64,000 nucleotides of DNA from positions 26,982-90,981 of IMG/VR virus record IMGVR_UViG_3300045988_122866; one strand, given 5' to 3'. The notes below the pieces were generated by a model. That model saw only the letters and a program-made list of their open reading frames with translations, did no database searches and was not told the origin of the DNA. Shown in pieces: positions 41,674-44,292 of this stretch. The stretch is from a virus. Position numbers and translations under genes: made by a program. Position 1 is the stretch's first letter, and each line of letters opens with the position of its first letter.

Positions 41674-42120
41674 ATGAATACTTATGGTTATCCATAGCAG
41701 TAGTATCCAATAGGTAATAATAGACCTATTTATGGAACAACTGCTACACCTGTGATTCAAAACAATACTGCATAGCGAATTAGACCCGTTGCTTCTTTAG
41801 AAGAGGTTCGAGCTATGAATATAGATTTTGATGGTTCAGTTTTTTATTTTCCTGACTATGCTAATCGTAGAATTTATACAAAACAAATAAATATGGATGG
41901 AACAGCTTCTATTAATATGTATGAATTAAAGGAAATCCCAAATTCTTCTTAGCCTAATAATGACTATATAACACGAGAAGAATTTAATACTACCTTAACT
42001 TCTATTAAAGAGGTATTCGCATAGATTATGGGATCTAATAACGCGGTTGCGCCGTCTTAGGAATCGGGTTAGCCAGCTCAATAGCAACCAGTAGAGAGCA
42101 AACCGCAGTTTAATTTTTAA
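41674..42120 (+). CDS. Gln/Pro-rich protein of about 148 aa
   Basis: RBS GGAGG precedes ATG 41674. Frame 1 runs to TAA 42118-42120 with about 10 in-frame TAG. Confidence 0.5.
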
Positions 42121-42132
42121 GGAGAGTTTTAA

Positions 42133-42381
42133 ATGACACAATCAATGAATCCAATGCAAATTATTGCTATGATTAAAAACGGTCAAAATCCATAGCAATT
42201 AGTTTTATCTATGCTTGAAAATCAAATGGGCGGAACGCCAATGGGCAATAATTTATTACAAATGGCACGGAACGGTCAATCCGATGACATTGAAAAATTT
42301 GCTCGTAATTTGTTTGAATCAAGAGGGTTAAATTTCGATAAAGAATTTAATAGTTTTAAGTCCCAAATGGGGTTTAAATAA
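42133..42381 (+). CDS. Small protein of 82 aa
   Basis: RBS AAGGAGAG. One in-frame TAG; stops at TAA. Confidence 0.5.
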
Positions 42382-42407
42382 ATAAAATTATAGAAAGAGG
42401 TTTTGTT

Positions 42408-43289
42408 ATGTTTAATTACAATTATCCAATGAGCACGCCTAATTATTCATTATCTGATATTGCTGCGGCTTCTGGAAATGGCTATCGTAATAATGATGGC
42501 GGAATGTGGGGAGACGGAGCATGGTGGATTATTATCCTGTTCTTATTCTGCTTCAATGGTTGGGGCGGTAATGGCTGGGGTAATAATGGTGCTAATGGTT
42601 CTGGTTTCCAAGGCACTACAACTCGAGAAGAAATCGGCTATGGTTTTAACATGAGCGATCTTAAATCTGGGGTTAATGGTTTAGCTTCTAGCCTTTGTAA
42701 TGGTTTTAGTGGAGTAAACACTAATCTTTTAAGTGGTTTTGCTAATCTTGCTGAAACTAATAATGCTAATACTCGCACTTTACAGAGTGATATCTGCAAT
42801 ATGGGTATGAATAATATGCAGAATACCTTTAGTATTACTCAGGCTATTAATGCTGATACTGTAGCAAGTATGCAGAATACTAATAATTTAACTCAGCAAT
42901 TAAGTAATATGGCAGCTACTAATGCTCAATGCTGCTGCGAAAATAAACAGTTAATTCAATCTAGTTTTGCTGATCTTAATTATAATCTTGCTAGTATTGC
43001 TTGCCAGAATCGTCAGGCTACCGTTGATGGTGTCCGCGATATTATTGACAACAATAATGCTAATATGCGTTCTATTCTTGACTTCCTTGTTCAAGATAAA
43101 ATTGAGACTCTTACCAGTGAAAATAGCACTCTTAAAAATTAGATTTCTCAAAATCTTCAAAATGCTTATCTTATTGATCAGTTGTCTCCAAAAGCAACTC
43201 CTGCTTATATTGTTGCTAATCCTTATACCGGTGTTAGTTATACTAGCTATGGATGCGGATATGGTTCAGGATGCGGTTGCAATTCCTGA
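42408..43289 (+). CDS. Gly/Asn-rich membrane protein of about 293 aa with a Cys-rich C-terminus
   Basis: A transmembrane segment (GAWWIIILFLFCF) is flanked by GNG/GWG repeats. The C-terminus is GCGYGSGCGCNS. It extends tool ORF 42408-43142 through one TAG to TGA 43287-43289. Confidence 0.5.
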
Positions 43290-43310
43290 TTGAAGAAAGA
43301 AGGTTAAATT

Positions 43311-43733
43311 ATGGAAATAACGGCTAATGCTTTACAATCAGTTGCTACTGGTTCTAATGTAGTATTCACTAACACAGCTGTTGCTGGAAACTGTTCCATA
43401 ATGTATCGCGAGGGTAGCGGTTTAGTTACCCTCCGCGGTCTTACGAACGGTCAACGCAGAGCTCGTTTCCGCATTTCATTTGGAGGTAATATAGGACTTC
43501 CAACCACTGGAACTGCGGGTGCTATTTCTTTGGCTATAGCTATTAATGGAGAGCCAGTTACTACTTCTACAATGATTTCTACTCCTACGGCTACTGGACA
43601 GTTTAATAATGTTTCACGTGCTTTATTCCTCGATGTGTTAGGCGGTTGTTGCACTCAAATTAGTATTGAAAACACGAGTTCATAGGCTATTGATGTTGAA
43701 AATGCCAGCTTAATTATTGAGAGAGTGGCATAA
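43311..43733 (+). CDS. Protein of about 140 aa resembling the BclA (exosporium) C-terminal domain
   Basis: Gly/Thr/Ala-rich beta-rich sequence ending …ASLIIERVA, compared with the BclA C-terminus …ASIIIEKVA. The comparison was made from memory. It extends tool ORF 43311-43685 through one TAG. Confidence 0.45.
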
Positions 43734-43746
43734 GGAGGTTTTTTAA

Positions 43747-44292
43747 ATGTGTGATAAATTCCAAGAAATTAAAAAGCAATTATTAACTCAAGTAGAAAGC
43801 CAAATGGCTCATTTAGAATGTGTTGATACAAAGGAAATGGGCGAAGTAATAGATATGATAAAAGACCTTGAAGAGGCCATTTATTATTGCACTATTACTG
43901 AAGCTATGAATGAATTACCTGAAACCACACATTATTATACTGAAAAATATAAATCTCCTCATAAAAAAAGAATCTATAAACCTATGACATATGATTATGA
44001 TTGGGAAGATTATGATTACGATGAACATGAATATGAGATGCCAACGAGTGGGAAATCTCATGAAACCCATGATAGTAGAGAAGGTCGTAGTGGCGTCCAC
44101 AGAAAGATGTATATAGAAGCCAAAGAACTTCATAAAGATAAGAGTGTTTAGATAAAAGAGTTAGACAAATATCTTCAAGAGTTAAGTTCTGATATAGTAG
44201 AAATGATTGAAGATGCTTCTAATGATGAACGTTCTTACATGGAGAAGAAAATCTAGGCTTTAGCATCTAAAATTGGATCTATGAATGGTTAA
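43747..44292 (+). CDS. Acidic Tyr/Asp/Glu-rich protein of about 181 aa
   Basis: Frame 1 runs through 2 TAG to TAA 44290-44292. Confidence 0.45.

Follow-up and report, generated by a model that had tools for sequence, protein, structure and literature searches.

The C-terminal domains of the collagen-like glycoproteins BclA and F-BclA (PF18573; PDB 1wck, 9h38), located in the exosporium nap and in the tip fibrils of endospore appendages, have a C1q/tumour necrosis factor (TNF)-type fold. The free-standing TNF-like protein ExsFA/BxpB (ExsF; PDB 7r1m, 7r5i, 9h3d) lies in the spore basal layer, where the stand-alone ExsF trimer clamps the leader peptide of collagen-like BclA/F-Anchor stalks in its inter-subunit clefts (PMC12357932). 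In TNF-superfamily ligands, such as ectodysplasin EDA-A1 (PDB 1rj7), and in C1q-domain proteins, anchor, stalk and head are one extracellularly exposed polypeptide. TNF-like knobs also occur in phages (cyanophage A-1(L) and A4 tail fibres, TM4 gp23, the receptor-binding protein of lactococcal phage 1358, the Sf6 needle knob and PRD1 P5), as C-terminal domains of long tail-module fibre proteins. Here we describe a cluster of five small + strand genes, g1 to g5 (41674-44292), in a 64-kb stretch of viral DNA (IMG/VR record IMGVR_UViG_3300045988_122866; hereafter the window). The fourth gene product, g4, has the BclA and F-BclA domains as its nearest solved folds. In contrast to these C-terminal parts of collagen-like glycoproteins, g4 makes up an entire protein; it is phage-encoded, lies beside the gene of a membrane coiled-coil protein, g3, and occurs in phages of non-sporulating hosts. 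Like ExsF, g4 stands free, but no sequence similarity between the two was detected; ExsF partners a collagen-like protein with an N-terminal Pro-rich leader in the spore, whereas the putative partner of g4, in a phage-infected cell, is the membrane-anchored coiled coil g3. Unlike in the TNF ligands, the putative stalk and head are here encoded by two genes and g4 has no signal peptide, and unlike the phage fibre knobs, g4 is free-standing and belongs to an accessory cassette.

To compare the cluster with related loci, 57 loci from species-representative genomes were analysed by tblastn with the window proteins. All were on gut or rumen contigs of metagenome-assembled genomes (MAGs), mostly binned as Clostridia, and many of these contigs were phage-sized or 120-176 kb long. 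A g3 homologue was found directly upstream of g4 in all but three loci, two of which had little or no upstream DNA. Butyrivibrio virus Ceridwen, which is in culture, and Dulem virus 33 showed the same adjacency, and homologues of g1, and probably of g5, flank the g3-g4 pair in Ceridwen and in many gut phage contigs, and also flank the g3 homologue in Clostridium perfringens phages. When neighbouring genes were clustered on phage contigs of ~40-50 kb, a recurrent order of protein clusters emerged, c5-c0-c6-c1(g3)-c3(g4)-c4-c7. Profile comparisons revealed no homology between the holin-like protein of the window and c5, or between g6, the gene that follows g5, and c7, so these flanking genes are specific to one lineage or the other. 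Together with the correspondences of g1 to c0, g5 to c4 and g2 to c6, described below, this indicates that the conserved core consists of exactly the five genes g1 to g5. The cassette is shared by the siphophage Ceridwen, Clostridium perfringens phages and jumbo phages of ~195 kb, and g3 occurs without g4 in crAss-like phages.

Collectively, these sequence comparisons show that g1 to g5 are the local copy of a mobile, widespread and uncharacterised phage accessory cassette with the g3-g4 pair as its invariant core. The protein collection contained >7,400 homologues of g3 and ~4,700 of g4 (625 clusters at 50% identity). Both families are therefore very large, yet they have no Pfam domain, name or literature, and they move together, as one fixed cassette, among many phage lineages of the gut and rumen. 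Scans of g1 to g5 against Pfam and NCBIfam gave no assignment, PHROGs returned only families of unknown function, and the NCBI cluster records gave no names. The preliminary description, made from the sequence alone, had regarded the arrangement as undescribed; in agreement with this, neither the searchable literature, including that on BclA/C1q- or TNF-like phage proteins and on the C. perfringens phages, nor Pfam, PHROGs, NCBIfam and PADLOC contained an account of it.

The g4 gene (43311-43733, + strand) encodes 140 amino acids (aa) and has one in-frame TAG. Its AlphaFold2 model (predicted local distance difference test score, pLDDT, 77.6; predicted TM-score, pTM, 0.76) is an all-β jelly roll of the C1q/TNF type, which structure and fold searches superpose on the BclA C-terminal domain. 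An independent Foldseek search of the PDB placed F-BclA, ExsF and BclA at the top, with E values of 1e-6 to 3e-5 and TM scores of ~0.7; the fold itself is also widespread outside spores. The nearest BFVD structures were stand-alone gut-phage proteins of 130-142 aa, one of them automatically named 'BclA protein'. Among the 150 family clusters listed, lengths ranged from 71 to 196 aa, with near-full-length members of ~130-160 aa and none above 196 aa. No signal peptide, lipobox, fibre or shaft segment is present in g4. In some searches P0001, which is 99% identical to g4, stood in for it as the query.

The likeness of g4 to BclA had first been proposed from its C-terminal end, ...NASLIIERVA, beside the BclA end, ...SASIIIEKVA. 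Both ends are correct, and the BclA C-terminal sequence that we used is 100% identical to PDB 2r6q_A. The proposed relationship holds for the fold but not for direct sequence similarity: identity to the BclA and F-BclA C-terminal domains is 17-18%, BLASTP against the BclA domain gave an E value of 1.9, and hhalign of the family profile gave a probability of 1.7%. The match of the terminal nonapeptide alone is accordingly not evidence. Searches of PDB sequences, with phmmer for the single sequence and with a 70-member family profile, returned nothing, and g4 did not match Pfam BclA_C (PF18573; gathering score 38 bits) at E<=1. When 70 diverse family members were scanned singly, near-full-length matches to BclA_C below the threshold were obtained for six, the best being P0334 (29.8 bits against the cut-off of 38, E 6e-7, model positions 14-124 of 128). 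NCBIfam, including its exosporium-leader model, gave no match to g4, and no collagen-like repeat, defined as (GXX)>=6 in any frame, and no g4 paralogue was found in the window. Taken together, the predicted structure and the family searches indicate that g4 stands alone as a protein and is related to the BclA_C/C1q/TNF domain very remotely, though probably by homology. With no exosporium leader, no collagen-like region and no N-terminal extension, it cannot be counted among the BclA-type proteins; it represents a novel, free-standing form of an established fold family.

The g3 gene (42408-43289, + strand; one in-frame TAG) encodes 293 aa. The N-terminus carries the conserved motif YSLSDIAAASG (YSLxDIAAA in the family) and is followed by a single hydrophobic helix (AWWIIILFLFCF; AWWIIILFLF / WWIIILFLFCF) and a linker rich in G, N and W. 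A CCC motif lies within the pair of long helices (residues 82-147 and 153-259), which lead to a C-terminal part comprising a Pro-rich PAYIVANPY segment (PAYxVxNPY in the family) and a Cys-rich tail (GCGYGSGCGCNS). This layout was obtained from the family alignment and agrees with an AlphaFold2 model of low confidence (pLDDT 59.9), too uncertain for a fold search. Pfam matches were to coiled coils only, including the trimeric TolA_bind_tri in 23 of 71 members, and the PHROG match was to phrog_16490, annotated as of unknown function. These features identify g3 as a membrane protein with one transmembrane pass, an extended coiled coil and a tail rich in Pro and Cys. All the elements to which attention had been drawn earlier (the WWIIILFLFCF helix, NGWGGNGWG, CCCEN and GCGYGSGCGCNS) are present, but the suggestion of a YjcZ-like protein is not borne out: NCBIfam, including its YjcZ-family model, gave no match at E<=1, and g3, with 293 aa and a long coiled coil, contrasts with that tiny Gly-rich family. 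Reading the N-terminus as a double-glycine leader was considered and dropped, as the GG is not conserved in the family alignment.

Homologues of g3 extend beyond phages with a recognisable g4. Suoliviridae crAss-like phages encode a full-length homologue (HMM E 1e-37) annotated as 'spike protein/glycoprotein', a label that appears to have no experimental support. In crAss-like phage cr1_1 (NC_055873; L068 2529-7523), the homologue gp063 (YP_010110708) shares with g3 a hydrophobic helix (WWWIFIIVLF), a G/W-rich linker, a CCC motif, the segment PVPAYLTCNPY and a Cys-rich end. Its neighbourhood encodes a 'pholin', a preceding DUF7841 protein whose tail is rich in Tyr, Asp, Glu and Arg, a β-rich protein of 136 aa and a 'transpeptidase catalytic domain' protein. 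This locus differs from that of the window in that the protein following the g3 homologue, the β-rich one of ~136 aa, is not detectably g4-like, and in that the host belongs to another phylum. In the C. perfringens phages PMQ04, 17DYC, CPD1, CPQ4, XP41-N3 and HMD-PC1, genes resembling g1, g2 and g3 are followed by a different, 119-aa β-rich protein; PMQ04 thus keeps the cassette order with another small β protein in the g4 slot. Profile comparison linked neither the 119-aa nor the 136-aa protein to g4.

The remaining three genes of the core encode proteins of biased composition. The g1 protein (41674-42120, + strand; 148 aa, eight in-frame TAG) has Q/P/Y-rich tails around a small conserved core (RPVASLEEVRAMNIDFDGSVFYF...IYTKQINMDGT), and 57% of its Gln codons are TAG. 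It matches phrog_21718 (function unknown), small-phage cluster c0 (HMM E 3e-9; hhalign 95.9%) and, in C. perfringens phage PMQ04, a protein of 146 aa (E 3e-13). These matches establish that g1 has homologues at the loci of small phages, C. perfringens phages and jumbo phages alike. The g2 protein (42133-42381, + strand; 82 aa, one TAG) is small, Q/N/M-rich and probably helical, judging from its sequence, with an NGQNPQQ motif, and is conserved within the jumbo-phage lineage. The c6 proteins of ~76 aa at the equivalent position in small phages are similar in size and have a GNPQQ-like motif, but hhalign gave only 12%; g2 and c6 are therefore equivalents by position, and homology between them is only weakly indicated. 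The g5 protein (43747-44292, + strand; 181 aa, two TAG) appears from its sequence to have N- and C-terminal helices around a low-complexity centre rich in Tyr, Asp, Glu and Lys (YDYDWEDYDYDEHEYE). Its N-terminal helix aligns with cluster c4 (hhalign 61.7%, E 8e-5), whose members have the same three-part layout but Y/R/G/S-rich centres, suggesting that c4 is probably the counterpart of g5. The Q/P-rich character of g1 and the acidic Tyr/Asp/Glu-rich character of g5 had been recognised in the preliminary description, and both are present.

All five open reading frames emerge at 41674-44292 once TAG is read as sense. The window has a G+C content of 30%, and long late genes on the + strand are rich in in-frame TAG, whereas replication genes on the - strand mostly have none or very few. 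Two giant late open reading frames, 2,835 aa with 88 in-frame TAG (6099-14606) and 2,581 aa with 27 (28664-36409), were also observed, and PHROGs recognised virion structural proteins at the left end of the window. DNA nearly identical to the window is found on human-gut contigs of ~190-198 kb with the same gene order, including the NrdD, dUTPase and PolIII-alpha genes. The TAG-rich late genes and these contigs therefore identify the window as part of a jumbo phage of ~195 kb in which TAG is recoded to Gln. In phages of this kind, recoded TAG codons are found mainly in genes for late structural proteins and lysis (preprint 10.1101/2021.08.26.457843), and the reading of TAG as Gln has been verified by metaproteomics (PMC9523058). 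No tRNA gene, including any for a suppressor tRNA, was found in the 64-kb window, so the machinery of the code change must be encoded elsewhere in the ~195-kb genome. Each of g1 to g5 is preceded by a GGAGG-type ribosome-binding site. Compared with the orthologues of the close relative L003, pN/pS is 0.08-0.15 for g1 to g5 and 0.02 for g6, which, with the thousands of g3 and g4 homologues, settles the earlier question of coding status: the reading frames are genes under purifying selection. At the TAG codons of g2, g4 and g5 (codon 135), homologues mostly have CAA or CAG (42 of 59 homologous sequences for g4 codon 125); at g3 codon 245, 22 homologues have CAA or CAG and 28 have Ala codons. The label 'TAG-dense', applied earlier to the whole cluster, is true of g1 (8 of 148 codons, 5.4%); the cluster as a whole has 13 TAG in 844 codons, similar to the other late genes of the window. 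Since unsuppressed TAG codons would truncate g3 and g4, the unit is expected to act late in this phage. Overall, the sequence evidence shows that 41674-44292 is part of one late transcription unit of the recoded phage.

Comparison of C. perfringens siphophages revealed that the cassette is dispensable in them. phiCP39-O is ~93% identical to PMQ04 over the shared flanking DNA, and another segment replaces the whole cassette. Relative to PMQ04 (L069 2942-6105), only the last 92 codons of the c7-like gene are left in phiCP39-O (L070); the remnant, gp44 (78 aa), aligns over 92 residues, with 95.7% identity, to the C-terminal portion of the last cassette gene product of PMQ04, which has 131 aa. CP26F, CP13O, CP34O and CP9O have a coverage pattern like that of phiCP39-O, and none has a g1-like gene. 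Because phages that are ~93% identical in the shared DNA either carry or miss the cassette, and those that miss it are isolated and propagating, it cannot be essential to them, and this argues against an essential virion or lysis role. In the C. perfringens phages the cassette is surrounded by anti-repressor and recombination genes, ~3 kb past the lysis genes; its site in temperate gut phages follows the holin and endolysin genes, beside the integrase gene. Natural presence and absence in cultivable C. perfringens phages, and presence in the cultivable Ceridwen, make the function of this widespread and uncharacterised cassette directly testable, and the cassette is thus experimentally tractable.

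The host range also bears on the earlier suggestion that the BclA-like sequence points to a spore-forming host. Butyrivibrio is non-sporulating, and the g3-g4 pair is found in Ceridwen, a phage of Butyrivibrio fibrisolvens, which argues against a spore-specific role; homologues of g3 occur, moreover, in crAss-like phages of Bacteroidales. The inference of a spore-forming host was therefore abandoned, and a BclA-like fold does not license it. As a separate observation, cassette contigs L012, L031, L027/L028, L047 and L063 are in MAGs labelled Methanobrevibacter, Alloprevotella, Bacteroides and Saccharibacteria, and the bin of L007, a 164-kb relative with 97% identity, is 'Mollicutes'. All of them look like phage contigs assigned to a wrong bin on composition or coverage, which makes MAG labels unreliable as host calls.

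As a free-standing BclA/ExsF-type fold, g4 offers the first structural handle on the cassette and a testable head-on-stalk model. In this model, which we favour tentatively and give somewhat less than an even chance, g3 would be a late, membrane-tethered stalk and g4 its trimeric head, with an accessory role at the cell envelope. By analogy with all of its close structural relatives, g4 would form a trimer, and this trimer may dock on the conserved terminal peptide of an oligomeric, possibly trimeric, g3, as ExsF does on its leader peptides. As two polypeptides, they would then reproduce the design of TNF ligands and of BclA/ExsF, in which an anchor carries a stalk and a trimeric head, and g1, g2 and g5, all of low complexity, could be co-assembling or matrix components. 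Assembly of such a complex at the cytoplasmic membrane would fall late in infection, and its function, accessory and dispensable, would be exerted at the infected cell's envelope rather than at the spore surface or as virion decoration. Candidate roles include a block to superinfection, masking of receptors for released progeny and modulation of lysis timing.

Several points weigh against this model. Gene adjacency is the sole evidence for a g3-g4 interaction, and the non-g4 partners in the C. perfringens and crAss-like phages suggest that the pairing may not be specific to a TNF-like head. Few charges flank the g3 helix, so that its orientation is ambiguous, and g4 has no signal peptide; head and stalk may therefore lie on opposite sides of the membrane. 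Confidence in the g3 model is low (pLDDT 59.9). Because g4 itself gives no BclA_C match, its likeness to BclA could reflect convergence on one fold rather than homology. The proposed roles in exclusion, receptor masking and lysis timing are conjectures based on where the genes lie and on their dispensability, and PADLOC-DB gave no match for g1 to g5 or for the small-phage cassette proteins. A broader and bolder idea, which we consider improbable although not far-fetched, is that the five genes are a self-contained, horizontally mobile system for a membrane-anchored, cross-linkable assembly in infected gut anaerobes, built on exosporium-like principles: a TNF-like trimer clamping a stalk, a Cys-rich cross-linker and Tyr/Gln-rich matrix proteins. 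If so, it would represent an unrecognised class of phage accessory structure common to sipho-, crAss-like and jumbo phages, and the assembly might shield the infected cell or the released progeny.

Other explanations of the cassette were weighed against the membrane-tethered stalk and head. That the reading frames are artefacts of reading TAG as sense draws on nothing more than the in-frame TAG codons themselves and is already refuted by the ribosome-binding sites, pN/pS values of 0.02-0.15, thousands of full-length homologues, the Gln codons at the TAG sites of g2, g4 and g5 (codon 135) and, in some homologues, at g3 codon 245, and the confidently folded g4 model. The cluster could instead be the end of the structural module, with g4 trimers decorating the capsid or capping a fibre and g3 acting as a fibre or ejection protein, in line with the earlier idea of capsid or tail decoration. 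We consider this unlikely, given the membrane-type hydrophobic helix and Gly/Trp-rich linker of g3, the lack of a fibre or shaft part in g4 and the occurrence of the cassette in unrelated phage types, with g3 alone in the crAss-like phages. The genomic positions described above, past the lysis genes in C. perfringens phages and beside the integrase gene in temperate gut phages, and the absence of the cassette from propagating relatives with ~93% identity in the shared DNA, likewise speak against virion proteins. A third possibility is mimicry of the spore surface, in which the proteins would join or mimic a sporulating host's exosporium or coat and thereby, perhaps, carry the phage or alter the spores. 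Exosporium proteins (F-BclA, BclA and ExsF/ExsFA) make up almost all of the top structural matches of g4, many carrier contigs are binned as Clostridia, and C. perfringens phages carry the cassette. The Cys-rich composition of g3 and the Tyr-rich composition of g5 are, in addition, reminiscent of spore coat proteins. This explanation is nonetheless very unlikely, since the g3-g4 pair is in a phage of the non-sporulating B. fibrisolvens and g3 homologues are in phages of Bacteroidales, the C1q/TNF fold is widespread outside spores, no collagen-like repeat, exosporium-leader or YjcZ match was obtained, and no other sporulation gene was found among the cassette and neighbouring genes. These findings also speak against the earlier proposal that the proteins modify the spore surface.

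The case for a lysis accessory module, in which g3 would be an i-spanin, holin regulator or membrane disrupter and the other proteins would tune the final step of lysis, is mixed. In the more distant jumbo-lineage loci the cassette lies directly 3' of a holin-family gene (in the closest lineage a LytTR gene intervenes), and the g3 homologue of cr1_1 follows the 'pholin'. Rz-type i-spanins have an N-terminal membrane helix and a coiled-coil domain, and g3, with its N-terminal membrane helix, two long helices and conserved Cys, has this architecture. TAG recoding, furthermore, is reported to concentrate in lysis genes (preprint 10.1101/2021.08.26.457843). However, the hosts are mostly Gram-positive Clostridia, which have no outer membrane, and the lipoprotein partner of a two-component spanin (Rz/Rz1) was not found, g4 having neither signal peptide nor lipobox. 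The C. perfringens cassette is dispensable and lies apart from the holin and endolysin genes, and the cassette proteins showed no similarity to the holin, spanin and XhlA families. A lysis module thus seems as improbable to us as a set of virion proteins.

The core is followed by g6 (44285-44605, + strand), which lies outside the cluster as previously delimited. Its start overlaps the stop of g5, placing it in the same unit as g1 to g5. g6 encodes a 106-aa metallopeptidase-like protein with an HExxH motif (HELTH); it matches DUF2268 (24.5 bits against a cut-off of 23.6), phrog_1233 and phrog_87 (metallo-protease), with Peptidase_M78 and SprT-like below their cut-offs, and a single match in PADLOC-DB, to AbiEi, is at chance level. 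g6 is conserved solely in the jumbo-phage lineage. The small-phage cassettes instead start with c5, a protein of ~130 aa (phrog_3754) whose Cys...His pattern (DCxxRA ... SHVV.VDG) is reminiscent of papain/C39-like peptidases. Judging from these motifs, a protease may accompany the cassette in both lineages.

The unit is bounded by terminator-like hairpins, of which six were detected in all against 1.6 expected. One, bidirectional and with a 20-bp stem (44589..44635), ends the g1-g6 unit, and a similar one (40668-40711) ends the preceding late genes. An AT-rich spacer of 243 nt upstream of g1 contains a promoter-like site, TTTACA-17-AATAAT (41594..41622, + strand), and a perfect 14-bp inverted repeat (ATAATAATGAAAGG / 11-nt spacer / CCTTTCATTATTAT; 41615..41653, + strand). 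The former is a consensus match only, in a region where the number of promoter-like sites is not above shuffled expectation, and is divergent from the promoter-like sites of the LytTR regulator gene. The inverted repeat shares nucleotides with the -10-like hexamer and stops 8 nt short of the GGAGG motif of g1; from its position it could be an operator, perhaps of the adjacent LytTR protein, or a hairpin in the 5' untranslated region.

The LytTR gene itself (40714..41430, - strand), divergent from the cassette, encodes a 238-aa protein with a response-regulator receiver and a LytTR DNA-binding domain and contains a single in-frame TAG. Only the closest relatives (L003-L007) share this gene, placed between the holin-like gene and g1; where the cassette occurs in more distant loci, the LytTR gene is missing and the holin-like gene directly adjoins g1. 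No endolysin gene was identified among the examined neighbours of the cluster, and the holin-family protein (40259-40669; phrog_13712, E 4e-37) is the only lysis-type gene product recognised nearby. Upstream of the holin-family gene, a 375-aa protein (39095-40222) looks like a tail fibre.

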